This document shows, piece after piece, positions 4,601 through 24,954 of a stretch of DNA of 38,015 bases. The notes below the pieces were generated by a model that was not told where the DNA came from, made no database searches, and worked only from the letters and a program-made list of their open reading frames with translations. The first letter of the stretch is position 1. Every line of letters begins with the position of its first letter. The stretch is from a virus (Duplodnaviria; Heunggongvirae; Uroviricota; Caudoviricetes; Crassvirales). The stretch covers positions 64,001 through 102,015 of IMG/VR virus record IMGVR_UViG_3300027741_000036. One strand, given 5' to 3'. A program made the position numbers and the translations under genes.

Positions 4601-7600
4601 GGAGAAGGTACGTTAATAGACTTATTTATTGAAAAAAATAGAGATAGTAATTTTGTTATTGATGATAAAGGACTTGCACATTACGTACATAGCTATGATG
4701 AGAAGTTAAGATATGGTAGACCTAAAGATTCGTTAGATCTTATTTATGCTAAGAACAGAAGGAATGTAGATTTATTAGATAATAAATATATATTCTATCA
4801 AGTTGCTGGTGAAGAAACAGAAGAACAACCTAAAATAGAAGAACAACAGTCTTTCCAATTAGAAGATATGCCTATGTCTGAAGCTTCTGCTTCTACAATA
4901 GAGAAGATCAAAGAGGCTTGTAAGAAAATGGGGATTAAGATTGAAACTCTTGTTGAATATGCTAAGAAGACTGGGCTTGATACAAGAACAGTTAATGGTG
5001 TTGCAGATCTTGTTAGAGGGATTGTTGCAATAGCTGAAGGTAGAGAAGGTGTTGCTCTTACAGAGGAAATGGTCCATTTAGCTACAGCTATATTGGAACA
5101 AACAAATCCTAAGATGGTGACAGAGATGATTGCTAAGATTGACAGGTTTAAAATATATAAGCAAACCTTAGAAGCTTATAAAAACAATAAAGCATATCAA
5201 CTTCCTAATGGGAAACCAGACATTCGTAAAATAAAGAAAGAGGCTGTAGATAAACTTATAGCTGAACTTATTATTAATCAAAGTGAAGGATCTACAGAGT
5301 TTCCTGAACTTAGAGAAGAATTAAACAGGTCATTAATAAGAAGACTTTGGGATGAGGCTCTTGATAGAATTAGAGGTATGTATAAATCTTCTAATGTAAA
5401 CATCTTTGAAACTGCTGCTAGACAAATTGGTGAAGGACAAGTGGGTGGTACAGTGAATGATATTGTAGCAGATGGTGTGTTCTTCCAATTGACAGATGCT
5501 CAAAAGGAAATACAAACAAAACTACTGACTACAAAAAATGCAATAGATAAGGTTTTAGGAGATCCTGATAAGGCAGATCCTTTACTACTTGATTCTGAAG
5601 AAGCTAATAACTTCTATGAGATGACTAATGCAGATGGTACAAAACTAACTATTGTAAAAAGGGTTACAGATAGAGTGAAGGCTTGGTATAAGGAAAGATT
5701 TGGTAATAAGACATTCACTCCTCAAGAGCAAGCATTTAATGAGCTTAAAAGAAAGTTTGGTGTTCAAGGGCATGCTGATCTTGAAGAAATACATGGTAGA
5801 TATTATAATAGTGATGGCACAAAGAGAGACAAACCTGGACCACGTCCTAAAAAGTTCAATCTTCCTAATGAAGAAATGTACAAAAGACTTGAAGACTATT
5901 ACAAAGATCTTATAAAAATGTTCCCTAAAGACACTCTTATAATGTCCGAGGTGATTATATATGATCAAAAAGAAAAAGAAGCTGGTACACTGGATTTTTT
6001 AGCAATAGAACCATCTGGTAAAGCACATATTCTCGATTGGAAGTTTATGCATATAAAAGGAGACGATGTTGCTTGGTTTAAACAAGGAGCATTCAATGTA
6101 CAGCTTGGACGATATAAACAAATGCTTAAGGACAACTATGGTATAAAAGAATTTGGAATGACAAGAGCTATTCCTATTTCTATGGAATTCAAACCGAAGA
6201 ACAGATTTGATATATCATTAGGATTTAATCTAAGTGGAATAGCAATAGGTTCTGCAAAAGCTTCTGATATAGAAGAGCTTTATCTAGTTCCAATTTCTGA
6301 GGAAACAGAATCAACAGGAGAAAAAGATCTTGATAAGTTGATTGTTAAATTGAACGCTCTTTTAAGACAGATTGAAAAAGAACAAGTTACTGAAAATGAA
6401 AGAGAGTTTAAAATAGAAAGACTTAATACGTTAAGACAAACAATAAGAGTTGTTCAAGCTACAGGAAACATCTATCCTCTTATAGACACTATAGAAGTGA
6501 TGAGAAGAGAAGGTGATAGACTGGTTAATGATTATGAAATTACGTATAAGAACAGGCCTGCATCATCTAAAGATTCTAATGATAAAGATCTTTCTGATTT
6601 TTCAGATGATATGAATAATTTCATAGCTGTTTCTGATCTTTTTGCAAATATTGGTAGAGAAATTGGCCATATTGTTTACACTGAGAAGATGAAAACAGAA
6701 GCAAAAACCAAAAAGCAAAAAGAAGAACTTGAAGATAGAGAGGACACGTTTAAAAAATTAAATGAAGAAAGTGATGCAATCTATCGTAAAAGAGATGAGA
6801 TTAAAGAAATTTCATTAGCGTTTGCAGATAAACATATTGGTCAGAGAAATCTTGTTACAGGACTTACAAGAGCAGAAGCTGTTGTAAAAGGACTTAGTTC
6901 TTTATTTAGAGGAGTGAGTGAGCTTCCATTAGCATCTTTAAACCTTCTATATAAAGTGACAAGACTTGCTCAAGGTAAAGCTTCTCAAGATGCATTAGTT
7001 GAAGTGAAAGAACTGATGGCCATTCGTGAATCTATAATGAACAAAGGTGTAGACGTTAGAAACTTTATACAAAAAATTTATCAAAAAGATGATAAGGGAG
7101 GCCTTGTAAACAAGTTGATATATAAATATAAAGATGAGTTTCGTAAAACTGTAGATGAAAAGTTTGCACTAGGTGGTGATAGAAAATGGCTTCTTGCTAA
7201 TATAGATATAGAAGGATATAAAAAAGAAGCACTTCCTGTTATTACAAACAGGGTGAATCAGATTAAGAAACAATCTTTCCCAGGAACTGAGGCTCAGGTT
7301 AAGGCTAAGAAGAAACAACTTATTGAAGAAGTACTTTTAAAATACGATATAACAAGAGCGGATTTCACTGGTGGAGATAACTATATTATTAAAAGACATC
7401 CACTTCCTATATGGTATTCAGATGAATACAAAGTTGTAGAAAGTGATCCTGATTTACTAAAGCTTTATAATTTTGTTACAACGTTTAATGAGAAAGCAAA
7501 GGATGTTGGATATATCAACAACAATGTAATGAAGACGTTTCTTCCATTTGTTAGAAAAACAATGGCTGAACAAGTTGCATTCAACAACATTCTTTCTGTA

Positions 7601-9619
7601 ATGGACAATTTTGGAAACAGTCTTCAGATAAAAGTGGAGGATGCAGGATATGGAAAGATAAATGAAATAACAGGAGAAGTTGAAAATTCTATTCCTAAAT
7701 ATTACACACATGATTTCTCTAGGACAGAAACTGGTGTGAATGATTACTCTGATGTAAGTGAAGATCTTTTCAAAAACTTAATCCTTTACATACAACAAGT
7801 TAATAAATATAAGTATATGACTGAAGTTGAAGGTCAGCTTAAACTTATAAAAACTGTTGAGGAGTTTAAAGGGCATCATCTTCAAACAAACAAGAGTGGT
7901 GATGTTGTTATGGATAGTAACAACCAACCAAAACAAGTTAAAGGTAATGAAGAGAATACAAGAATGTATGATGATTTTCTTAGAGTGCTTTTATACGATC
8001 AAAAATATGTTCTTTCAGATGCAGACACTCCTTTAAAGATAGGAAAAGTAATAAACTTTATCAAGAGTGCTGTTAATAAAGTGGCAGGAAGAGAAGTTTG
8101 GAAAGAAAATGAAAATGCAAGTCCTACATCATTAATAAAAACAATGGATGCTGCCAATAGAGGGTTCCAAATAAAAACACTTGGTCTTGAGATTATTCCA
8201 GGATTGGTAAACTTATTTGGTGGACAGGCTCAGATGAGTGCTCAAGCTGGTAATTATTTCAAATATAGAGAATTCTTAAAGAATGAAAGAGTTATTCTCT
8301 CTCAGGAGTTTAAAAATGATGAAGACAAAGAAATCTTTATTCAAATGATGGATGTGTTTATGCCAATGAAAGATGATCCTGCATATGAGGAATATAAAAA
8401 AGCAGGTATTTCAAAGCTCACAAATGCAAATCTTGGTGATATGTTGATGGTAACAATGCGTTATCCTGAACAGATTATGGAAAAAGCTACATTCCTTACA
8501 CTATTAGAAAACTCAATGGTGGTTGATGGTAAAATTGTAAACATTAGAGAATACGTTAGAGCAAAGTATAAAGGAAGAAGTAGTTCATCTAGTGCATATA
8601 ATAGTGCAAAAGAAAAAATAGAACAAGAAGTAGAAAATTTAAAAAACACTAAGTCTATAGCTAAAACAAGAAAACTTGAAAATGGTAAACTTGTTATTCC
8701 AGGACTTGATATTTCAGATAAGACTGAAACTCAACGACTTACAAATCTAACTAGACGTATATCTAGAAATGCTATGGGAGGTGTATCAGATGGTGATATT
8801 AATAGAATGTCAATGTCTGTATGGACTAAGAGTATGATGGTGTTTAAAGGATGGATTCCAAAACTTGCTGATACACGTTTCTCTGAGCTTAGGAAAATTT
8901 CAGATGACTTCTCTGTAGAGATAGGAGATGATGGGATGGCTATTGGAGAGAAGTATGAAATTGGTAGACTTAGACTATTAGGATATGTAATGATGACTTC
9001 ATTTAGAGATAAGGCTTCTAATATTAAAAATATTATGGAGATGAATGATGCAGGGATTGAAGCAATAGATAAACTCTATATAGAATTTGCTGAGAAATAT
9101 AAGAAGAGAACAGGGGAAGAATTTACTATGACCAAGGATGATTTTGCAGATATGGTGAGAACTAATTTAAGAAATCAGCTTAAAGAACTTGCAATATTAG
9201 CATCTCTAATAGGAGCAACTCTTGCAGTGGGCTTTATGGAACCTCCAGAAGATGCAGATAAAGCTACTAAAAACTTTTATAGATATTGTCAAAAAGTGAT
9301 TGATAAATTTGTAAGTGAGATTTCATTCTTCTATAATCCTATTGAGTTTGAAAAGATTCTTAGTGGTAACATGTTCCCAGCAATAGGTCTTGTTACAGAT
9401 ATGACTAAATTCTTTCAACATTTTTGGTTACAGACAACAGGACTAGATTTTGATCCAGAAACGTCATTTGATGATGTTAGAAAAAAAGCTCAGCCAATTA
9501 AATATGCTGCAAAATCTCTACCTGTATTTAAATCTGTAATTACATATTTATCAATGATTAGTTCTGAGTTTGCAAAAGAATTTGACATAACAATTCAGAG
9601 AGAAAGTTCTGTTAGATAA
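1679..9619 (+). CDS. Large polyvalent virion (probable cargo/ejection) protein: 3 zincin-like modules, 2 Pol-beta-family nucleotidyltransferase domains, PD-(D/E)xK nuclease, helical C-terminus
   Basis: GFILTGS..DLD..VDVF (2711-3022); GFIPTGS..DLD..IDLF..RPKDSLD (4214-4740); EEMVH at 5063-5077; AGTLDFL..ILDWK..QLGRY (5981-6115). Confidence 0.75.
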   Translation: MKTCDIRLNTIADMQKRGAINEALTIVDRPLFNQLNNKYSDLARAKYNVNNQGSLFSEQMKEIPRLGNTPYNREDTKTVNKAVLNQEMFTELQTKYDLRQQGDGIFYQVKDESKTHQNVPPDGNFMNLLTNFFNKNGFKLSMDVLKDYREFFDFKSGIDLIQKEVFLPDENFVPTKEAAVLGVTLLKKTKEFFELSNHIKAWDQYADKKRFYIQEIKNKGKIFGNDAVEIAEMYVMYDFVENYIVPNYDKLLQADKTYRKESDIVKKLKEVSFIEKAFNYFNKLMKKLFVLKPSFQQAEDSAKKIAAEILNNSINFEINKDYVLKNTIKLSEADNDIKIEMENKGFILTGSAMLRMLGDLYRAADEVINDLDFIMSYQEFKKLDLDLAKMTDKELSQVPEEQYIKKLSDAISEKLGKEYILEKAFVGNEHRGNKSVTLTYKKGTTTVDVFVRTNSSYAKEFENNEKIITDMLTNKLLMAKGKHITDYLYFKPKTELQLARRSPSVQILSRLSLNENFEMKKRKLSEFFELTDKFKEFENDDWYDVSGNEFFEKRNEELLKKIYTKLGKENGDYMYSLIQNELEVARRFAKEGEKNLKVNLGRVIRTMIPAALKNGIVADINFVDEKVDKGLDDYLTNWAKKYNIDIKNIKDFADAQTISLSGAVDVINKIIYLANSEDRNVTTMAEEVATMMVFMMGTEHKEVSSALKQIKNYPKYDEEYLKYSKLDRYKEKNDSGVMIPNVKKINIEILTKAIAERVVIKYKARTSENPFWKEIDNIINWFVKIFKGKRGLNLDIILDNIAEDILSEDSKLLQSLPENYELKSYEQTLEDNPQLVKLLDALVPIGFIPTGSLSYRNQLDTYRGKGEKIHDLDLVSNEYKTMEEALAAVEKALPGFWIPNFINSRTKEDGKKMWEEPGKFVATGYYGGELIGKIGVDYEIAMTSDGKEMPHTVINIATQELVKETGRDDEGNVYGEGTLIDLFIEKNRDSNFVIDDKGLAHYVHSYDEKLRYGRPKDSLDLIYAKNRRNVDLLDNKYIFYQVAGEETEEQPKIEEQQSFQLEDMPMSEASASTIEKIKEACKKMGIKIETLVEYAKKTGLDTRTVNGVADLVRGIVAIAEGREGVALTEEMVHLATAILEQTNPKMVTEMIAKIDRFKIYKQTLEAYKNNKAYQLPNGKPDIRKIKKEAVDKLIAELIINQSEGSTEFPELREELNRSLIRRLWDEALDRIRGMYKSSNVNIFETAARQIGEGQVGGTVNDIVADGVFFQLTDAQKEIQTKLLTTKNAIDKVLGDPDKADPLLLDSEEANNFYEMTNADGTKLTIVKRVTDRVKAWYKERFGNKTFTPQEQAFNELKRKFGVQGHADLEEIHGRYYNSDGTKRDKPGPRPKKFNLPNEEMYKRLEDYYKDLIKMFPKDTLIMSEVIIYDQKEKEAGTLDFLAIEPSGKAHILDWKFMHIKGDDVAWFKQGAFNVQLGRYKQMLKDNYGIKEFGMTRAIPISMEFKPKNRFDISLGFNLSGIAIGSAKASDIEELYLVPISEETESTGEKDLDKLIVKLNALLRQIEKEQVTENEREFKIERLNTLRQTIRVVQATGNIYPLIDTIEVMRREGDRLVNDYEITYKNRPASSKDSNDKDLSDFSDDMNNFIAVSDLFANIGREIGHIVYTEKMKTEAKTKKQKEELEDREDTFKKLNEESDAIYRKRDEIKEISLAFADKHIGQRNLVTGLTRAEAVVKGLSSLFRGVSELPLASLNLLYKVTRLAQGKASQDALVEVKELMAIRESIMNKGVDVRNFIQKIYQKDDKGGLVNKLIYKYKDEFRKTVDEKFALGGDRKWLLANIDIEGYKKEALPVITNRVNQIKKQSFPGTEAQVKAKKKQLIEEVLLKYDITRADFTGGDNYIIKRHPLPIWYSDEYKVVESDPDLLKLYNFVTTFNEKAKDVGYINNNVMKTFLPFVRKTMAEQVAFNNILSVMDNFGNSLQIKVEDAGYGKINEITGEVENSIPKYYTHDFSRTETGVNDYSDVSEDLFKNLILYIQQVNKYKYMTEVEGQLKLIKTVEEFKGHHLQTNKSGDVVMDSNNQPKQVKGNEENTRMYDDFLRVLLYDQKYVLSDADTPLKIGKVINFIKSAVNKVAGREVWKENENASPTSLIKTMDAANRGFQIKTLGLEIIPGLVNLFGGQAQMSAQAGNYFKYREFLKNERVILSQEFKNDEDKEIFIQMMDVFMPMKDDPAYEEYKKAGISKLTNANLGDMLMVTMRYPEQIMEKATFLTLLENSMVVDGKIVNIREYVRAKYKGRSSSSSAYNSAKEKIEQEVENLKNTKSIAKTRKLENGKLVIPGLDISDKTETQRLTNLTRRISRNAMGGVSDGDINRMSMSVWTKSMMVFKGWIPKLADTRFSELRKISDDFSVEIGDDGMAIGEKYEIGRLRLLGYVMMTSFRDKASNIKNIMEMNDAGIEAIDKLYIEFAEKYKKRTGEEFTMTKDDFADMVRTNLRNQLKELAILASLIGATLAVGFMEPPEDADKATKNFYRYCQKVIDKFVSEISFFYNPIEFEKILSGNMFPAIGLVTDMTKFFQHFWLQTTGLDFDPETSFDDVRKKAQPIKYAAKSLPVFKSVITYLSMISSEFAKEFDITIQRESSVR

Positions 9620-10630: not shown

Positions 10631-13600
10631 ATGAATAATATTTGTTCAGCACCTGCATGCCCTATAATATTAGATAGCACTTGTGTATTTTACTCAGGTG
10701 CTAATCTTGTATACACAGGAGTGAACACTAATGACAATCTTCAACTTGTATTAGAAAAGATTGACAACAAGTTTAGGGATGCTGGACTTGGATATGTGTT
10801 TACAAATGGTGTGATACAAACTGCTCCTGGACAACCAGTAAAACTTGGTGGTGTGTTAGTTAATGATACCGCAATCAACAGTCAAGGGTTTACATTTGGT
10901 CTATCTGGAACAGTTCAAGCTAGTGCATTTATAACAACAGGAGGAACATCTTTCCAGTTTGTTAAAGGTGATGGTTCTTTAGATGATGGAGGTGCACAAC
11001 GTCCAGGTGCATATATTACAGAATTAACAGGAGATGGAACAGCTAGTGGACCAGGAAGTTCTGTGTTTACATTATCTACAGTTTTCAATGCTCCTGCTAC
11101 ATACGGAAGTGCTACAAGAGTTCCTATTATAACAGTGAATGCAAAAGGACTTATTACAGGGGTTACAACAACAGTGATTGCTGTTCCTTCAAGTAGTGTT
11201 GTTATTAATGGAGATGTTTATGGGTATGGAAACACAGGATCTCCAATTAGTTTAACATTAGTAAATGTGCTTTCTACACCTGGAGTTTATGGAAGCGCTA
11301 CAGCTATTCCTATTATAAATGTGAATAGTAAGGGACTTATTACATCAATTAGTCAAATAGATGTATCAGGTGGTGGTGGTTCTACACCTAATCTTCAACA
11401 AGTTACAGATCAAGGATCTAGTACAACTAATTCAATAACATTATCTAATACAGGTGGTCAAATTGTATTAGATAATACAGGAACATATAGTCCTTTTCCA
11501 AATATTAGTATATTTGATATTGTACATAATACATCTGCTTCATTTCAAACTGGCATAATAGCACTTCAAGATGTTGGTAATCCTCTTTTAACTGCTTCTT
11601 ATTATACAAATCAAATTGCTATTGGAAATACTTCTGGCAGTTTTGTGTTAAGCTATCCTAGTCAGAGTGGAACATTTGCATTAATTTCTGATTTATCAGG
11701 TTATGTAACAAATGTAACAGCTACATCCCCATTATTCTCATCAGGAGGAATCACTCCTAATATAACTATTCAACAAGCTAGTGGATCTCAAGATGGTTAT
11801 CTATCTTCTGCAAATTGGACTACATTTAATGGTAAACAAAATCCAATAACACTAACTACTACAGGAGCAGGGGCTGCTACATTCATAGCAAATGTATTAA
11901 ACATACCTACTCCTGGAACTGCAGCATTCACATCACTCACCACTACAGGCTCATCAGGAGCTTCAACTTTAACAGGTGGTGTACTAAATGTTCCTACGTA
12001 CACACTTGCAGGACTTGGTGGTATAACTCTTACATCTCTTAGCTCAACAGCTACAGGACTTACATATACAAACACTACAGGTGTATTTAGTCTTACATCA
12101 GGATACTTAATACCTACAACAGCTAGTTACAATAATACAAATTGGGATTCTGCTTATACAAATCGCATAACAAGTCTTACAACAACAGGAACAAGTGGAG
12201 CTGCCACTCTTATAGCTAACACTCTTAATATTCCACAGTATCAAGCAGCAGGTACTTATGTAACATCTGTTACAGGAACTTCTCCTATATCTTCAACTGG
12301 AGGAACAACACCTGTAATCAGTATTCCTTTAGGAACATCATCAGTTGATGGTTATTTATCTGCTACTGATAGAACAAACTTTCAAACTGCTTATACTAAT
12401 AGAATTACATCTCTTACAACTACTGGTTCAGGAGCAGCAACATTAGTTGCTAATGTTCTAAATATACCAACACCTCCAACAGCTACATTTTCATCCCTCA
12501 CTGTTACAGGGAACAGTGGAGCAAGCACATTATCATCAGGAGTGTTGAATGTTCCTACATATACATTGAGTGGATTGGGTGGTCAACCTCTTGCTACAAA
12601 TCTTACATCTCTATCAGCATTAACATATGCTTCTACAGCTTTTGTAAAGATGACAGCTGCTGGTACATTTGCTCTTGATACAAACACTTATTTAACATCT
12701 GCTGTAACATCTGTAGGAGCAACTAGTCCTATTACATCTAGTGGTGGAAATACACCAACTATTTCTACATCAATGGCTACCAATAAATTGATTGGCAGAA
12801 GTTCTGCAGGAACAGGTGTGATGGAAGAGATAACACTTGGAACAGGACTTTCTTTTTCAGGAACAACACTAAATGCTTCAGGTGCTTCCCCTCTTACAAC
12901 TAAAGGTGACCTTTATACATTTAATTCAACAAATACAAGACTTCCTGTAGGACTTGATACACAAATTCTTATAGCAGATAGTTCTACAACTACAGGATTA
13001 AAATGGGGAACCAACACTGCTGCTACACCAACAGGGTACTACTTAGCAATATCAGATTCTACAACACAAGATAATCCTACTGCTAATACACCAAGAGCAA
13101 TTAAATTTGATACTACTGATTTAGCTAATGGATTTTCATTACAAACACAAACTGCTGTATTTACAGGAACTATAAATAATGGAGGAGCAGGTGCAGGAAC
13201 TGTATTAACTGTTACAGGTGTTACATCTGGAACATTAAAGGTGGGGATGGTATTAACAGGTGGTAGTATAACAGCAGGAACTTTTATATCTGCATTTACA
13301 AGTGGTACAGGAGGAATAGGTACTTATGTAGTATCAGTTTCTCAACTTAGGACATCTGCTACATATACAGGAACAATGACTTCTCAAATTGTTGTTGCTA
13401 ATACAGGTATTTACAACTTACAGTTTTCTTCCCAAATGGATAAGAGTGATGCAGGTGTTGATTATGTACATATTTGGTTAAGGAAAAATGGAACTGATAT
13501 AACTGCAAGTGCAGGTATTATATCACTACAAGGTAATGCTCCTGCATATATGATGGCTGCATGGAATTATTTATTAAGTTTAGTAGCAGGAGATATAATA

Positions 13601-17186: not shown

Positions 17187-17315
17187 ATGGGAGTACCAAA
17201 TAGACAAATAGGACAAAGTGTTGAAGTAAATCTTCTTTATCAAATATCTATGCAACTAGATAGATTGATCAAGGTTACAGCAGCATTAACAACAAGCACT
17301 ACGACAACACCATAA
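17187..17315 (+). CDS. 42-aa peptide paralogous to N-terminus of the next gene, with Thr-rich tail (absent from ORF track)
   Basis: MGVPNRQIGQSVEVNLLYQISMQLDRLIKVTAALTTSTTTTP; A-rich leader; TAATG overlap with 17315; 18 of 31 aligned positions identical. Confidence 0.85.
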   Translation: MGVPNRQIGQSVEVNLLYQISMQLDRLIKVTAALTTSTTTTP

Positions 17316-18439
17316 TGGGAATATCAAAACAAATAGGATGGAGCCCTAAGGCTAATTTATACTATCAAATCTCTCAACAATTTGAAAGATTGATTGGTGT
17401 AACATCTAAAGTTGTTTTAGTTCCTCCTGTTATAACCTATTACAATGTGGCTGGTTGTGAAAGAATGGAATATGATGTAATTAAATATAATGGTCCTGAT
17501 GTATTAGTGGCAGGTACTATTGTGAGTAATAATACTCCTGAATGTTGGAGTGTGGTAGATGTAGCAACAGGTCCAGAAAATGTAGGAACTGTTCAAACTG
17601 TATGGAATGCTGATGGTGATTGTGCACCTTGTATAGCTGCTCATTTTTCTAACACAATATATTGGGGAGAAGATTCAGTAACAGCATGTGCTCAAACTAT
17701 TCCAATATATGCTAGAGGTACTGGTACGACATTTTGTAATTCAAACACTTTTTATAGTGAAGATTTTAGAACTATAGGAACTGGTACAATAGTTATATCA
17801 TACGATGGTCAACTTAAAACAGTGAATGTTACATCAGGCAGTGATGTAGCAACATTTAATGGTGGTTGTGATCCTTGTCCTCCACCAACAATTATAATAG
17901 GTACACAAGAGTGGACAGCAAGAAACTTGGATGTTACAACATACAGAAATGGAGATGTGATACCACAGGTACAAGATCCTACTCAATGGGCTAATTTAAC
18001 AACTGGTGCTTGGTGTTGGTATGATAATAGTTATAATAATGGTTTAGACTATGGTAAATTGTATAACTGGTATGCAGTGAATGATGCAAGGGGATTAGCG
18101 CCTACAGGATTTCATATTCCATCGAATGCAGAAATAACTACATTAAAAAACTTTCTAGATCCTGATGCTGGTGGAAAAATGAAAGAAATAGGTATAAGTT
18201 ATTGGGTAGATCCCAATACAGGAGCTACTAACACTAGTCTTTTTACAGGACTTGGGGGTGGGTATCGTGCTAATCCAAATTATAGTGCATTAAAGGTTCT
18301 TTTACTTAATTGGGTGGCAGATGAGGTTGATTTGAATAATGCTTATTGTTTTTATATATTTCATAACAGTGCTGAATTAAATATAGAAGCTATCAATCCT
18401 AAAAATTTTGGACTTTCTATTAGGTGCGTAAAAGATTAA
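17315..18439 (+). CDS. Surface/virion protein: N-terminal shared module, Cys-rich middle, C-terminal Fib_succ_major (FISUMP) domain
   Basis: IGTQEWTARNLDV..YGKLYNWYAV..GLAPTGFHIPS..GLSIRCVKD are hallmark Fib_succ_major motifs. Confidence 0.85.
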   Translation: MGISKQIGWSPKANLYYQISQQFERLIGVTSKVVLVPPVITYYNVAGCERMEYDVIKYNGPDVLVAGTIVSNNTPECWSVVDVATGPENVGTVQTVWNADGDCAPCIAAHFSNTIYWGEDSVTACAQTIPIYARGTGTTFCNSNTFYSEDFRTIGTGTIVISYDGQLKTVNVTSGSDVATFNGGCDPCPPPTIIIGTQEWTARNLDVTTYRNGDVIPQVQDPTQWANLTTGAWCWYDNSYNNGLDYGKLYNWYAVNDARGLAPTGFHIPSNAEITTLKNFLDPDAGGKMKEIGISYWVDPNTGATNTSLFTGLGGGYRANPNYSALKVLLLNWVADEVDLNNAYCFYIFHNSAELNIEAINPKNFGLSIRCVKD

Positions 18440-18455
18440 AACCAAAACTACATAT

Positions 18456-19481
18456 ATGAAGGAACTAAAGTTCATTTGCGCTCAGCCTGATGATAATTAT
18501 TACACATGGCAAGTGCATTTATGGATAGAGAGTCTTAGGAAAATAGGAATGTCAGACAAGGCTATTGTTCTTGTGTTCACTCCTTCCTTTAGAAACAAGA
18601 CTGATAGATGGGAAAAAGTTGTAAACTTATATCCAGAAGCAGAATTTGTTTTCTATAAGGATGAAGAGAATGATGTGAGTGATAAGCTTGGTGTTTACAT
18701 ACCTGTTCTTAGACCTTATTGTCTTCAAAGATATTTTAAAGACAATCCAGATATGAAAAACAAAGCTGTGTTCTATTGTGATTCAGACATTGTTTTTACA
18801 GAGAAGTTTGATGTTTCTAAGTTTATAGATGATGATGTTTGCTATCTATCTGATACAAACAGCTACATAAATGCTTCATATTTTGATAGTAAGATTAAGG
18901 ATGTTCTTCCAAATAAACTGGAAGAATATAAAAAACATGACATCCTTGGTAATGCAACTAGTCTTGTAGGAATAGATAGAACAACATGTGAAAAGAACAA
19001 TCTACATTCAGGAGGTGCACAATATTTCCTTAAGAATATAGATGCTTCTTTTTGGGAAGATGTTAAAAATCATTGTCTTTATTTAAGAGTGTATTTACAA
19101 AATGTAAATAAAGAGTTTTTTAAGGATGAAGATTCTGGATTTCAAAGTTGGTGCGCTGATATGTGGGCTGTTCTTTGGAACCTTTGGAAGAGAGATTTAG
19201 AAACAAAGAATATTCCAGAAATGGAATTTGCTTGGAGCTCAGATCTTATTGAGAAATTAAACAGGTGTACAATCTTACATAATGCAGGAATAGTGGGAGA
19301 CTATGCAAATGGTTATCCAGCTTTCTATAAAGGAAAATATCACACTGGTAAAAATCCTTTTAACGATACTCACTTAGACACTGTTTTAAATAGTGAAGAA
19401 AGTGAAAAGTATTGTACACATCATTATACTACACAGCTTATTCAATTAAAAAATAAATATAATTTAAACTATAACCCCTAA
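18456..19481 (+). CDS. GT-A fold glycosyltransferase resembling HPAT / peptidyl-serine alpha-galactosyltransferase (GT95/GT96-like)
   Basis: YYTWQV..ESLRKIG, YIPVLRPY, FYCDSD (DxD at 109-111), GGAQY, WCADMWA match by eye the motif order of plant/algal peptide O-glycosyltransferases. Confidence 0.65.
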   Translation: MKELKFICAQPDDNYYTWQVHLWIESLRKIGMSDKAIVLVFTPSFRNKTDRWEKVVNLYPEAEFVFYKDEENDVSDKLGVYIPVLRPYCLQRYFKDNPDMKNKAVFYCDSDIVFTEKFDVSKFIDDDVCYLSDTNSYINASYFDSKIKDVLPNKLEEYKKHDILGNATSLVGIDRTTCEKNNLHSGGAQYFLKNIDASFWEDVKNHCLYLRVYLQNVNKEFFKDEDSGFQSWCADMWAVLWNLWKRDLETKNIPEMEFAWSSDLIEKLNRCTILHNAGIVGDYANGYPAFYKGKYHTGKNPFNDTHLDTVLNSEESEKYCTHHYTTQLIQLKNKYNLNYNP

Positions 19482-20244: not shown

Positions 20245-20667
20245 ATGGCAATCAAATCACTATTTCCAGAAGAGATGATGGAATCAGCTGGAAGCAGCTT
20301 AAGTCTTGATGCAATTAAGGCTAAACTAAATTATTTTGAACTACAATTACATGAACTTCATTGGCAAACTAGAGGGTTTGCTGAACATGAAGCTCTTGGT
20401 AAAATCTATGACAAGGTGTTTGATCTTAAAGATGAGATTGTAGAAAAAATAATGGGCTATACAGGAACTAGAACTAAAGCTATGCCTGTTCAACCTATTA
20501 AGGATTACACTCCTGGTATGTCTGAACAAGTGGTTAGAGAACTAAACACCTTTGCTAAGCAATTAGAAGCTTTTGGTGAATCAAACGATATGCCTGATAT
20601 AGAAAACATAGCACAATCTTTAAGTGGGGATGCTGCTCAAACTCTTTATAGACTAACACTGTCTTAA
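20245..20667 (+). CDS. Ferritin/Dps-like four-helix-bundle protein
   Basis: LHELHWQT..AEHEALGKIY..DEIVEKIMG resembles the Dps ferroxidase pattern (HW..H..L..Y..D..E). Confidence 0.75.
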   Translation: MAIKSLFPEEMMESAGSSLSLDAIKAKLNYFELQLHELHWQTRGFAEHEALGKIYDKVFDLKDEIVEKIMGYTGTRTKAMPVQPIKDYTPGMSEQVVRELNTFAKQLEAFGESNDMPDIENIAQSLSGDAAQTLYRLTLS

Positions 20668-21594: not shown

Positions 21595-22008
21595 ATGGCA
21601 ATAATGAAAAAACCCATGGCTAAAAAGTCTATGGCTAAGAAATCAGCTCCTAAAAAAGCTATGATGATGAAAAAAGCTCCTGCTAAATCTATGGAATCTC
21701 CAATGATGGCTGGTCCTATGATGAAGAAAGGTGGTATGGTAAAGAAAGCTAAACTTGGTACAACCACTAGTGAAAGCACAAAGTCTCCTAATTATAAGGA
21801 TAGTGCTGCAATCTACGGTAAGCAATTTGATGATTATAGTGCAAAGGCAGTGAATGCAATGGGAACTAGCAAAGCAAGTGGCCTTAGAAAAAAAGCTACT
21901 GAAGCTAGAGAAAAAGAAACTAAGTTTTCTAAAAAAGCTTATGGAACTAGTCCAGGTCTTCCTCAGAAAAAAATGGGTGGTAAAATGTCTAAAAAGAAAG
22001 CTTGTTAA
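21595..22008 (+). CDS. Lys/Ala/Met-rich histone-H1-like basic protein
   Basis: 33 Lys in 137 aa by hand count; repeated xAKK; KKGG and KMGG motifs. Confidence 0.75.
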   Translation: MAIMKKPMAKKSMAKKSAPKKAMMMKKAPAKSMESPMMAGPMMKKGGMVKKAKLGTTTSESTKSPNYKDSAAIYGKQFDDYSAKAVNAMGTSKASGLRKKATEAREKETKFSKKAYGTSPGLPQKKMGGKMSKKKAC

Positions 22009-22009
22009 T

Positions 22010-22450
22010 ATGGCTACAATTAAAAAGGCTGAAGATGGTAAAAAAGTGATAAAAGGCTCTAGACCAAAACTTGGTGTATTTAGAACTGAGAAAGAAAGAA
22101 CTACTAGAGGTGGCCTACTTGAACCTTATAAATATTCAAGACAGTCACTTGATACTTCAGGATATTCAAAAGGTAAACCAACCTATGAATTAAAAACTGA
22201 ACAAGGAGAAGGTGATAAAACTAGATCTAAAGCTACAAGTAATAAATCTAAAACTATTTCTAGAGATGAAGTTCCTTCTACATTAAAGTCTTTAAGTAAG
22301 GCTAAGAATGGTAAATGGATACAAAAAGCTACAGCTTCTATTAAGAAACGTGGAACTGAGGGTAAATGTACCCCTATTACAAAACCTGGATGTACTGGCA
22401 AAGCTAAAGCTCTTGCTAAGACATTCAAGAAAATGGCTAAAAAGAAATAA
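22010..22450 (+). CDS. Basic protein (MATIKK start; track start 21854 trimmed), C-terminal CTPITKPGC motif
   Basis: ATG 1 nt after the upstream TAA; 146 aa, Lys-rich; TAATG overlap with 22450. Confidence 0.75.
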   Translation: MATIKKAEDGKKVIKGSRPKLGVFRTEKERTTRGGLLEPYKYSRQSLDTSGYSKGKPTYELKTEQGEGDKTRSKATSNKSKTISRDEVPSTLKSLSKAKNGKWIQKATASIKKRGTEGKCTPITKPGCTGKAKALAKTFKKMAKKK

Positions 22451-23448
22451 TGGCAAAAAGTATAAAATTAAAACCTTATGCAAGGTTTCTAAAAAATGGA
22501 GAAATAGTACCAGGAAGTCTTGGTTTATACACTCATGCTCCTAAGGTGGGTATATGGAAAGAGGTTCAACCTGTAGAATATTTTAATAAGACTACTCAGC
22601 ACTATCTTGATGTGGTGAACATTACCTATCCAGATGCTGTATTAGCTCAACATCTTGCTACAAGGTTACAATTATTCCTTTCTGATAGAGGTGTGAAAAC
22701 CAGTGATACAGTTTTAAATCTTACAGTGTGTTCAGATGATGTTAATGCTTCTGAGTTTGCTGATATTAATAACATAGGACAAAATCCTCCAGCATTAAAT
22801 TCCTATCTTGGACCATTTATGGGTGGTGGATTAGCTGGTTATCCTCATACAGGAGCTCTAGCATTACAAGCTTGGCAAAGTCATGCTACAACAATGACTC
22901 CTACTGATGGACCATTATTGTTAATTAACATGCCTCACATAGGAGTTACACAACAAGCTGATCTTGTTACTGCTAATGATAATGTAGGTAGAATGTTAAG
23001 AAGAGGAAAGACTTCTGCTACAAGTGATAATACCTGTGGTGCTGTTGTTACAGCTGCTAACTGGGTTATGACAAATGGTGCTGGTGGTTCTGCTCCAACT
23101 AGAGGTGCTGGTGTATTTGCTGATAATGATCAATACTATACACTTGCTAGTATTCTATATACAAACAGAGCTACACTTTGTTCTGCTCCCTATAACTTTG
23201 TTTTAGACCCCACTAAATATAGTGCTGGTGTTAAATTAGCTACAGAATATATAAGAGCAGCAAGTTTTACAGATTTAAAGAATACATTAATTCCTGTTCT
23301 TACAGGGCAAAAAGATCTTTATTTCCTATCTGGAACATTTATTAATGTAGATGATGGATATGCACCATCTATAAACTTTAATGAATTATGGTTGAGAAAC
23401 TCAGGAACTTGGACAGATCTTACAACTGATTTTAGAAATACATTATAG
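22450..23448 (+). CDS. LCIB/LCIC-type beta-carbonic anhydrase domain fused to an N-terminal structural module
   Basis: YPDA..L..G...T...VCSDDVN (C94, D96), FMGGGLAGYPHTG, PHIG (H163), RRG, CGA (C196) reproduce the LCIB_C_CA motif order and the Cys/His/Cys zinc ligands. Confidence 0.8.
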   Translation: MAKSIKLKPYARFLKNGEIVPGSLGLYTHAPKVGIWKEVQPVEYFNKTTQHYLDVVNITYPDAVLAQHLATRLQLFLSDRGVKTSDTVLNLTVCSDDVNASEFADINNIGQNPPALNSYLGPFMGGGLAGYPHTGALALQAWQSHATTMTPTDGPLLLINMPHIGVTQQADLVTANDNVGRMLRRGKTSATSDNTCGAVVTAANWVMTNGAGGSAPTRGAGVFADNDQYYTLASILYTNRATLCSAPYNFVLDPTKYSAGVKLATEYIRAASFTDLKNTLIPVLTGQKDLYFLSGTFINVDDGYAPSINFNELWLRNSGTWTDLTTDFRNTL

Positions 23449-23449
23449 T

Positions 23450-23650
23450 ATGATATATGAACCTCACAATAGAGTGGAAGTCAGTACACCTAAAGGTGAT
23501 GGAATTATATTTTTGGTTACAGACTACGGTCATGAAACTGATACAATTTATACAGTGATTATTAATTCTACAGGAGAAATGTGGCAATATTGTCACAAGG
23601 ACATTATAGTTAAGAACAATATAACATTTGGAAGAAATGGCAACAATTAA
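23450..23650 (+). CDS. Hypothetical protein
   Basis: 66 aa, 1 nt after upstream stop, overlaps next start. Confidence 0.7.
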   Translation: MIYEPHNRVEVSTPKGDGIIFLVTDYGHETDTIYTVIINSTGEMWQYCHKDIIVKNNITFGRNGNN

Positions 23651-23954
23651 GAAATCTGGTCCCTGGAATCCACAAAAGGCTTCTGCTTATGTAGGTAAAG
23701 GAGTTCTTAAAAGTGGTGGTAAGATTAAGCTTTCTGCTGGTGGTGAGAAACATGTTATATATAAAAAGACCAGTCCTACAGGAATTGGTAAAGGTAAGAA
23801 GGGTGATATTATGGTTAATCATCCTACAACTGATAAAGGCAAATGGGATACTATAGATCTCACTAAGAAAGCTGGAGCTAAAACTGTTAAGCAAGGAGTT
23901 GCAGCTACAAAAAAATGGCATAAAGAACATCCATATCCTAAAAAGAAAAAATAA
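23637..23954 (+). CDS. Basic protein (MATIKK start)
   Basis: 105 aa from ATG 23637; KSGG motif; Lys-rich; TAATG overlap with next ORF. Confidence 0.75.
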   Translation: MATIKKSGPWNPQKASAYVGKGVLKSGGKIKLSAGGEKHVIYKKTSPTGIGKGKKGDIMVNHPTTDKGKWDTIDLTKKAGAKTVKQGVAATKKWHKEHPYPKKKK

Positions 23955-24493
23955 TGGCTACAGTTAAAAAGGTTAAGAAAGCTCAAGGTGGAGATAGTCT
24001 TGCTATAAAAACAAATGTGCGTAAAGCATTTGAATCTATAGCAAACAAAAAACCAAAAAAAACTAAATTAGATAATAAGTTATTATATCCAGAGCTTCAG
24101 GCAATGTCACAGCCTGATTTAAAACCTATATCATCTAACAATTATCGTCCAGTAGCACCAAAAAAAACTGGTGGTAAAGTTCCTAACGGTCCTCTTATTA
24201 AGAAGAAAGGTCCATTTAAAGGATCTTCTTTAAAGAATGGTGGTAGTAGTCCAGCTTGGCAAAGAAAAGAAGGAAAGAATGCTTCTGGAGGGCTTAATGC
24301 TAAAGGTAGGGCTTCTTACAATGCTGCTAACCCTGGCAAACCTGGTCTTAAAGCACCTCAGCCAGAAGGAGGTCCTAGAAAGAAATCATTTTGTGCTAGA
24401 ATGTCTGGGATGAAGAAGAAACTTACAAGTGCTAAGACAGCAAATGATCCTAATAGTAGGATTAATAAGAGTCTTAGAAAATGGAAATGTTAA
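23954..24493 (+). CDS. Basic protein with C-terminal PAWQRKEGK..SFCARM..NSRINKSLRKW domain (recalled as DUF6321-like)
   Basis: MATVKK start; AQGG, KTGG, KNGG motifs; C-terminal ~80 aa recognised as a widespread phage domain. Confidence 0.7.
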   Translation: MATVKKVKKAQGGDSLAIKTNVRKAFESIANKKPKKTKLDNKLLYPELQAMSQPDLKPISSNNYRPVAPKKTGGKVPNGPLIKKKGPFKGSSLKNGGSSPAWQRKEGKNASGGLNAKGRASYNAANPGKPGLKAPQPEGGPRKKSFCARMSGMKKKLTSAKTANDPNSRINKSLRKWKC

Positions 24494-24675: not shown

Positions 24676-24954
24676 ATGGCTACAATGAAAAAACCTGCTA
24701 AGAAAATGCAGATGGGTGGAACTAAAATGATGATGAAAAAAGGTGGTTCTTTTCCAGACTTAAATAAGGATGGTAAAATCACTCAAAAAGATATTCTTAT
24801 TGGTAAAGGTGTTCTTCCTAAGACAGCTAAGAAAGGAATGAAAGTTAAGAAGCAAGCTGCTACAGCTATTGCTATGAAAGCTGCTGGTAAAGCTCCTAAG
24901 ACAATGATGAAGACTGGTGGTAAGACTAAAAAATGTGCATATGGCTGCAAGTAA
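24676..24954 (+). CDS. Lys/Met-rich basic protein containing an EF-hand-like loop
   Basis: 25 Lys in 92 aa; MATMKK start; DLNKDGKITQKD at 24757-24792. Confidence 0.75.
   Translation: MATMKKPAKKMQMGGTKMMMKKGGSFPDLNKDGKITQKDILIGKGVLPKTAKKGMKVKKQAATAIAMKAAGKAPKTMMKTGGKTKKCAYGCK

Follow-up and report, generated by a model that had tools for sequence, protein, structure and literature searches.

A phage-encoded LCIB-type carbonic anhydrase-like domain on an exchangeable N-terminal module, a candidate for display on the virion of a freshwater crAss-like phage

Carbonic anhydrases (CAs) of the LCIB, or theta, type are known from the CO2-concentrating mechanisms of algae. What might a protein of this type do among the late genes of a crAss-like phage, joined to a short N-terminal segment that also heads another protein of the same phage? 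The question is raised by a 332-aa open reading frame (ORF) in a 38,015-bp stretch of DNA (positions 64,001–102,015 of the IMG/VR record IMGVR_UViG_3300027741_000036; hereafter, the window), the terminal 38 kb of the 102,015-bp genome of a freshwater crAss-like phage. The N-terminal segment of the protein is called the tag below. The genome encodes a crAss-type large terminase (TerL), portal and major capsid protein (MCP) (PHROGs 6681, 6547, 11589) and two giant late proteins (4379 and 2646 aa). Its overall likeness to crAss001 is weak but collinear: the portals share 24% identity (E 5e-31), and crAss001 gp31, gp34, gp42, gp43 and gp44 have faint counterparts in it. By TerL it comes closest, among isolates, to Leptolyngbya phage Lbo-JY46 (39%), with Cellulophaga phages phi17:2 and phi4:1 next (34%). 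We propose that the protein may be a zinc enzyme that forms dimers and is displayed on the virion via an exchangeable anchor, a reading for which, taken as a whole, we see an even balance between being right and being wrong.

An earlier note on this DNA, made from the letters alone, had assigned the ORF to the LCIB family and had named a profile search and a structure prediction as checks; both were run, and both bore the assignment out. The Pfam family PF18599 (LCIB_C_CA) matched residues 65–228 with an E-value of 1.6e-17 and 64 bits, above the cut-off of 25. This match spans profile positions 3–144, and those of close relatives span positions 16–220 of 223. In total, 324 homologues were found and PF18599 was present in every one of them, while phmmer against PDB sequences returned LCIB-family entries only. 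With a profile of 64 homologues, PtLCIB4 (E 2e-21) and 6kfs (E 5e-21) were detected in the PDB, and CrLCIB and LCIC, which are inactive in vitro, gave weaker matches (~1e-7). The AlphaFold2 (AF2) model of the full-length protein had a mean confidence (pLDDT) of 80.7, the active-site loops 95–150 being of low confidence in the monomer. Its eight best Foldseek matches all belonged to the LCIB family (E 6e-12 to 9e-5, template modelling score by target ~0.7), and canonical beta-CAs ranked after the LCIB entries, with E 0.03 or worse. Identity to solved LCIB members is only ~20%. We consider it almost certain that the domain has the LCIB fold.

The canonical beta-CA family (Pro_CA) was also considered as a candidate and rejected: the motif reads C-S-D-D-V, with no Arg at +4, and there was no Pfam match other than PF18599. 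A comparison of the enzyme with PHROGs gave only a match at chance level (E 0.07). The homologues form a large virus-only clade with an invariant signature of its own (GGLAGYPHTG, SH and PHIG). Among the representative genomes of 185,579 prokaryote species, close cellular relatives were limited to a single match, on a 1.5-kb contig of a metagenome-assembled genome.

All the LCIB motifs lie in the ORF where the earlier note had placed them: YPDA (residues 60–63), C94-S-D96-D-V-N, GGLAGYPHTG (126–135), P-H163-I-G, R184-R-G and C196-G-A. The equivalent positions of PtLCIB4, listed in Table 1, were counted along the alignment with 5b5y and checked against the mutant names S47R and H88A of PDB entries. 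In this alignment the full Cys/His/Cys and Asp/Arg site, as first claimed, is present, and C94, D96, H145, H163, R184 and C196 are invariant in all 166 unique full-length homologues, a set that reaches down to ~39% identity and spans three phage lineages. Position 185 is R or K in the homologues. At position 95, where we take the inactive LCIB of Chlamydomonas to carry Arg, 153 of the 166 proteins have Ser, as does PtLCIB4, and the others Ala; Arg was never found. The conserved ligands suggest that the Cys94/His163/Cys196 site binds zinc. Catalytic activity as a carbonic anhydrase is a further step, and to judge from the sequence we give it an even chance.

Prediction of a homodimer gave a score of 0.87, the best control reaching 0.02; 20 of 30 solved homo-pairs but one of 23 single chains came up to the mark used for a dimer. 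The dimer runs agreed in at least 68% of contacts, with pLDDT of at least 82. The predicted interface comprises residues 95–98, 120–128, 133–138, 144–145, 184–188 and 197–198 of the enzyme part and residues 9, 11, 19–26 and 37–43 of the tag, both tags taking part in it. R184 of one chain contacts H145 of the other, which agrees with the intersubunit cleft reported for LCIB, lined by His162 and Arg194 (PMC5876011). The protein is accordingly modelled as a putative homodimer with its active site at the subunit cleft.

The tag itself was compared with the other proteins of the genome. BLASTP aligned it without gaps to a second ORF of the window, ORF 19494 (17 of 37 residues identical, residues 7–43 against 9–45, E 2e-08). 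A hidden Markov model (HMM) of the tag built from homologues detected these two ORFs (E 8e-21 and 4e-14) and no others in the 102-kb genome, the next-best ORF standing at E ~2. The similarity of the two N-termini, already noticed from the letters alone, is thus real, whereas the label 'structural' given to ORF 19494 at that time was not confirmed, as this ORF has no match in Pfam or PHROG. Modelled alone, the tag folds with a pLDDT of 90.1 into strands at residues 8–13, 25–27 and 35–38; in the full-length model the same strands have a pLDDT of 83–89 and are followed by a low-confidence linker (residues 40–50). No Pfam family covers the tag. That it is not part of the enzyme fold is strongly supported, and we hold with great confidence that it is an exchangeable N-terminal module; the proposal of a reusable tag separate from the enzyme has therefore stood, since the tag folds alone and heads other proteins.

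These other proteins are numerous. In 68 related IMG/VR loci the tag heads 24 distinct non-LCIB proteins, among them bare poly-Thr tails of 67–82 aa, Cys-rich and poly-Thr proteins, a BspA-type leucine-rich repeat (LRR) protein and a Fib_succ_major protein in which the tag is present twice in tandem. A search with a tag HMM, as had been suggested, was also carried out: against 1.84 billion representative proteins the tag profile gave at least 1128 clusters, 695 of them at E 1e-10 or better. The tag was always located at or near the N-terminus, often in two tandem copies, in proteins of 68–860 aa. Pfam analysis of 70 longer members revealed Fib_succ_major (11), DUF285 (5), Laminin_G_3 (4) and LRR_5 (3), along with Ig, PKD, Ice_binding, Lcl_C and Peptidase_S74. 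Payloads other than LCIB, those of ConA-lectin and poly-Thr type included, are adhesin-type, surface-binding domains. Signal peptides are absent from the tagged proteins, which is what one expects of components that assemble in the cytoplasm.

It should be mentioned that some tagged microproteins (L042 8221–8424, L008 7444–7677, L014 6818–7060; 67–82 aa) are made up of nothing but the tag, an ECC motif and a tail of poly-Thr. Two adjacent Cys residues directly follow the tag in many tagged proteins and are absent from the LCIB protein of the window. In addition, the Cys-rich and Fib_succ_major payload is joined to a different N-terminal module (tag 2) in the window ORF 17315–18439 and to two tandem tags of the type shared by the LCIB protein and ORF 19494 in L029 (10996–12039) and in 11 global clusters, which indicates that anchors and payloads are shuffled independently.

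The payload types bear on the question of catalysis. An LCIB fold could have been recruited as one more adhesin payload, displayed on the virion and non-catalytic, with a zinc site kept for stability or for holding, at the surface of the host, a ligand similar to a carboxylate or to bicarbonate. Every other payload of the tag is indeed a binding domain, and CrLCIB and LCIC of Chlamydomonas retain the site yet show no CA activity in vitro (PMC8825250), so that activity cannot be read off from an intact site. Zinc in a structural role would account for the ligands, but it explains less well why D96, H145 and R184 are equally invariant, or why position 95 is kept as Ser or Ala, as in PtLCIB4, and never as Arg. 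On balance we regard a non-catalytic role as unlikely.

Where the gene stands in other phages was examined next to its sequence. In four distant relatives (92–129 kb, 77–100% complete) the LCIB protein is the sole tagged protein of the genome. In two of them, L044 and L060, which were mapped, the gene belongs to the head module, the order being TerL, portal, a scaffold-like gene, MCP, a 337-aa gene, LCIB, DUF6321 and a gp34-like gene. In L060 a GIY-YIG homing endonuclease gene sits between LCIB and DUF6321, and the MCP-to-LCIB stretch is flanked by LAGLIDADG and GIY-YIG/NUMOD3 homing endonuclease genes (7396–8262 and 10903–11679).

A second setting was found in a myovirus lineage, recognised by its tail sheath and T4-like MCP, in which the LCIB domain lies between the MCP gene and the head-tail adaptor and sheath genes. 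Here two other N-terminal modules occur, of which each LCIB domain carries one; the adjacent 120-aa and 776-aa genes also begin with one of the two. In the tree of LCIB domains both myovirus modules are intermixed in one clade with a support of 1.0, which implies that they have been exchanged repeatedly. A tblastn search of phages with the myovirus-type module gave one marginal match, to an unannotated record. The motif may mark tail fibres, but in view of this result that is not used as evidence here. A different arrangement was observed in L066 (9599–11665), a jumbo-sized phage contig of 203 kb with terminal repeats, and in L067 and L068: two tandem LCIB paralogues of 401 and 285 aa that lack the tag and have further N-termini, in the first an unrelated 128-aa extension.

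The gene order is also what an intracellular role must be measured against. The protein could be a cytoplasmic auxiliary metabolic enzyme that buffers pH or supplies the bicarbonate consumed in carboxylation steps for purines, pyrimidines or fatty acids, its N-terminal module clamping or regulating the dimer. Viral alpha-, beta- and gamma-CAs have been reported as auxiliary genes in metagenomes (10.64898/2026.01.21.700432), tag residues form part of the predicted dimer interface, and a few homologues (P0072, P0077) seem to lack any N-terminal module. Against this, the gene has its place in the head module or the late/structural arm, away from metabolic genes; the tag also heads adhesin domains and the bare poly-Thr tails, which makes no sense for a mere dimer clamp; and N-terminal modules were swapped independently in the myovirus lineage. 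We consider such a role improbable.

We favour instead display on the virion, for which crAss001 provides a precedent. Its head fibres dock in pockets at hexon centres through residues 1–38 of gp21 (a trimer) and residues 1–58 of gp29 (a dimer) and display variable C-terminal domains, and its tail fibre gp22 docks via residues 1–26; the authors expected that head-fibre analogues had gone unrecognised in other crassviruses (PMC10172136). The gp29 gene belongs to the lysis cassette, and the tagged genes studied here are likewise near a lysis cassette. The tag is like these docking domains in length and placement and in the way it is combined with varied payloads. By analogy, residues ~5–43 would be an exchangeable docking anchor that fixes what follows to the outside of the particle, most likely to the capsid, in the manner of the short capsid-binding domains of the crAss001 head fibres. 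Residues ~52–332 would pair as a homodimer, with the zinc site, Asp96, His145 and Arg184 lining the subunit cleft as they do in active LCIB enzymes of diatoms. On this model the dimer on display would bear a zinc-hydroxide active site, whose default chemistry would be the interconversion of CO2 and bicarbonate; hydrolysis of a small ester or of a substrate like carbonyl sulfide is a possible alternative.

Docking on the virion is supported by the adhesin-type payloads, the adjacency to MCP in the distant relatives, the anchor swaps in the myoviruses and the crAss001 precedent. Arguing by analogy, we regard the protein as somewhat more probably a part of the virion than not. The exterior of the particle is favoured over the interior, and the head is more probably the site than the tail. 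Of the earlier proposal that a CA is docked on or in the virion by a reusable tag, the enzyme family and the tag have been verified; docking itself stays inferential, with 'on' preferred to 'in'. A further suggestion, that the enzyme supplies host carboxylases, fits poorly with surface display. The most specific version, in which an active carbonic anhydrase sits on the capsid, the tag is a new and widespread head-fibre anchor and the protein is the first enzyme-bearing head fibre, is tentative and in our opinion rather doubtful.

The remaining evidence comes from the surroundings of the gene (Table 1). In this genome and in its close relatives L008 and L014 the tagged genes and the LCIB gene follow the lysis cassette, where the late arm ends. 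The genes stand there in the order glycosyltransferase-like gene (phrog_4417), the tagged gene or genes, a Dps-like DUF5856 gene and Lys-rich genes including DUF6321, and the cassette recurs without LCIB in other contigs. The start of the LCIB gene overlaps the stop of the upstream Lys-rich gene in the sequence TAATG; the true start of the latter is the ATG at 22010 and not 21854. A DUF6321 gene adjoins the LCIB gene or is near it in 40 of the 68 related loci, in some of them within the head module.

This neighbourhood suggests another placement of the protein, as internal cargo: the tag would be a capsid-targeting signal, and the enzyme would be packaged with Lys-rich proteins and delivered into the next host. 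Crassviruses do package and eject cargo proteins (PMC10172136), and both the operon with Lys-rich MATxKK genes, joined by the TAATG overlap, and the conserved adjacency of DUF6321 fit such a role. However, the LRR, lectin, Ig, PKD, Fib_succ_major and mucin-like poly-Thr payloads are of surface type, and a folded dimer of ~70 kDa would have to unfold for ejection. Because of the payload types we rank internal cargo low and hold it to be very unlikely.

Several further features of the neighbourhood were recorded. The Lys-rich genes around LCIB that start with MA(T/I)xKK are located at 21595–22008, 22010–22450, 23628–23954 and 24676–24954 of the window. DUF6321 is also retained in cassettes without LCIB; these observations on DUF6321 come from the window and from loci including L008, L014, L044, L060, L077 and L078. 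In every cassette examined, the phrog_4417 gene (~338 aa, no Pfam match) is situated directly upstream of tagged, often poly-Thr-rich genes (window 18456–19481; L008 6410–7426; L014 5799–6815; L077 5062–6078; L078 475–1488). Its constant position suggests that its product modifies those proteins; the gene is presumably glycosyltransferase-like, a label that we take over from the first reading of the DNA. The Dps/ferritin-like DUF5856 gene (window 20245–20667; PHROG label 'starvation-inducible regulator') is a member of the cassette in at least 19 loci. The Bacteroidota -7 motif TAnnTTTG is not enriched over the window (45 occurrences against 55 expected from shuffles), a count that says nothing about the host.

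Table 1. Positions in the window of the LCIB gene, its parts and other genes mentioned in the text
Feature	Position	Strand	Basis
Whole gene, 332 aa, ATG start: anchor module and LCIB-type beta-CA-like domain	22450..23448	+	ORF list
N-terminal tag, residues ~5–43, three beta strands	22462..22578	+	AF2, tag profile
LCIB/theta-CA-type domain, residues ~52–332	22603..23445	+	Pfam, PDB profile, Foldseek
C94-S95-D96, putative first zinc ligand and catalytic Asp (PtLCIB4 C46-S47-D48)	22729..22737	+	Alignment to 5b5y
H145 (PtLCIB4 His88)	22882..22884	+	Alignment mapping, conservation, predicted dimer contact
H163, putative second zinc ligand (PtLCIB4 His102)	22936..22938	+	Alignment, conservation
R184-R185 of RRG (PtLCIB4 R116/R117)	22999..23004	+	Alignment, conservation
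C196, putative third zinc ligand (PtLCIB4 Cys126)	23035..23037	+	Alignment, conservation
Other tagged gene (ORF 19494), 246 aa	19494..20234	+	Tag at residues 8–41, then ECC and a Thr/Gly/Ser-rich payload of no known family
Upstream Lys-rich gene, starts MATIKK	22010..22450	+	Sequence read
Lys-rich DUF6321 gene	23954..24493	+	Pfam

A number of observations weigh against a displayed, dimeric and active enzyme, in addition to the inactivity of the Chlamydomonas proteins. The LCIB gene lies among Lys-rich genes whose products look like DNA-binding proteins of the particle's interior, and its translation is coupled to that of one such gene. The success of the dimer prediction may reflect recall by the model, because LCIB dimers have already been solved. 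A thiolate-ligated zinc site is unusual in oxic lake water, and the advantage of a surface CA for a phage is not evident. With regard to the anchor, hhalign of the tag gave a probability of 1% against crAss001 gp21 and 0.1% against gp29, and a comparison of the tag-only model with 48,161 PDB representatives got no further than Z 2.8, too low to mean anything. Nor is the tag tied to dimers, since in one protein it is joined to Peptidase_S74, which is typically a domain of trimeric fibres. Finally, neither the enzyme nor ORF 19494 had a tblastn match in 50,697 phage records, so a cultured carrier is lacking, and with it a virion proteome or map. The tag and PF18599 profiles likewise had no match in either Lbo-JY46 or crAss001.

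As to novelty, public metagenome clusters automatically labelled LCIB_C_CA exist, most of them viral, so that the domain call itself is not new. We found no paper that links LCIB to phages or describes the fusion, and no viral protein with the LCIB fold in BFVD, where the best match paired the tag with an uncharacterised Virus NIOZ-UU157 protein (52 columns, 42% identical). What is new is the virus-specific clade with its invariant site, the placement in structural modules of two lineages, the fusion to an exchangeable anchor and the tag family. In at least two lineages, crAss-like phages and T4-like myoviruses, the LCIB domain is fused to the exchangeable module of the lineage's own. On the reading of an active enzyme on the capsid, a CO2/bicarbonate or related zinc-hydroxide reaction would take place at the virion or host surface and could, for example, alter pH or carbonate chemistry locally while the phage adsorbs in lake water; a displayed and active protein would be the first of a new class of virion-borne enzymes and would link viruses with inorganic-carbon chemistry in a new way. 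The tag also offers a handle for predicting accessory fibres of uncultured crAss-like phages and is a candidate display anchor.

Comparison with known systems places the protein between several of them. With the LCIB/LCIC proteins (PF18599; PtLCIB4 5b5y, 6kfs, CrLCIB 5k5w and LCIC 5b5x) it shares the fold, the Cys-His-Cys set, the CSD motif, counterparts of His88 and of RRG and the predicted homodimer; it differs from them in its N-terminal phage module, in its membership of a virus-only clade and in having no link to photosynthesis or CO2 concentration. Compared with viral alpha-, beta- and gamma-CAs and with the CAs of giant viruses, it is likewise a virus-encoded, putatively zinc-binding protein of CA type, but those CAs belong to canonical classes and are stand-alone genes, whereas here the protein is of LCIB type, anchor-fused and encoded in structural modules. 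Classification as a stand-alone auxiliary metabolic CA was rejected, the domain being fused to a shared module and encoded in the late arm or head module.

The crAss001 head-fibre proteins gp21 and gp29 resemble it in having a short N-terminal domain (38–58 aa and used for docking there), a C-terminal domain (displayed there and putatively here) and genes near lysis or capsid genes, and gp29 also in its dimeric form. No similarity of the anchors was detected in sequence or fold, hhalign giving probabilities of 1% or less for homology of the tag to the capsid-binding domains of gp21 and gp29; the payload is an enzyme fold here and an Ig-like or helical domain there. In modular receptor-binding and decoration proteins of phages, such as T4 Hoc and the anchor domains of tailspikes, a conserved N-terminal anchor is combined with swapped C-terminal domains. 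The same principle is seen here, with one anchor carrying many payloads and one payload carried by different anchors. To our knowledge, the enzymatic payloads of such anchors are glycan depolymerases or esterases, and we know of no report of a CA fold among them.

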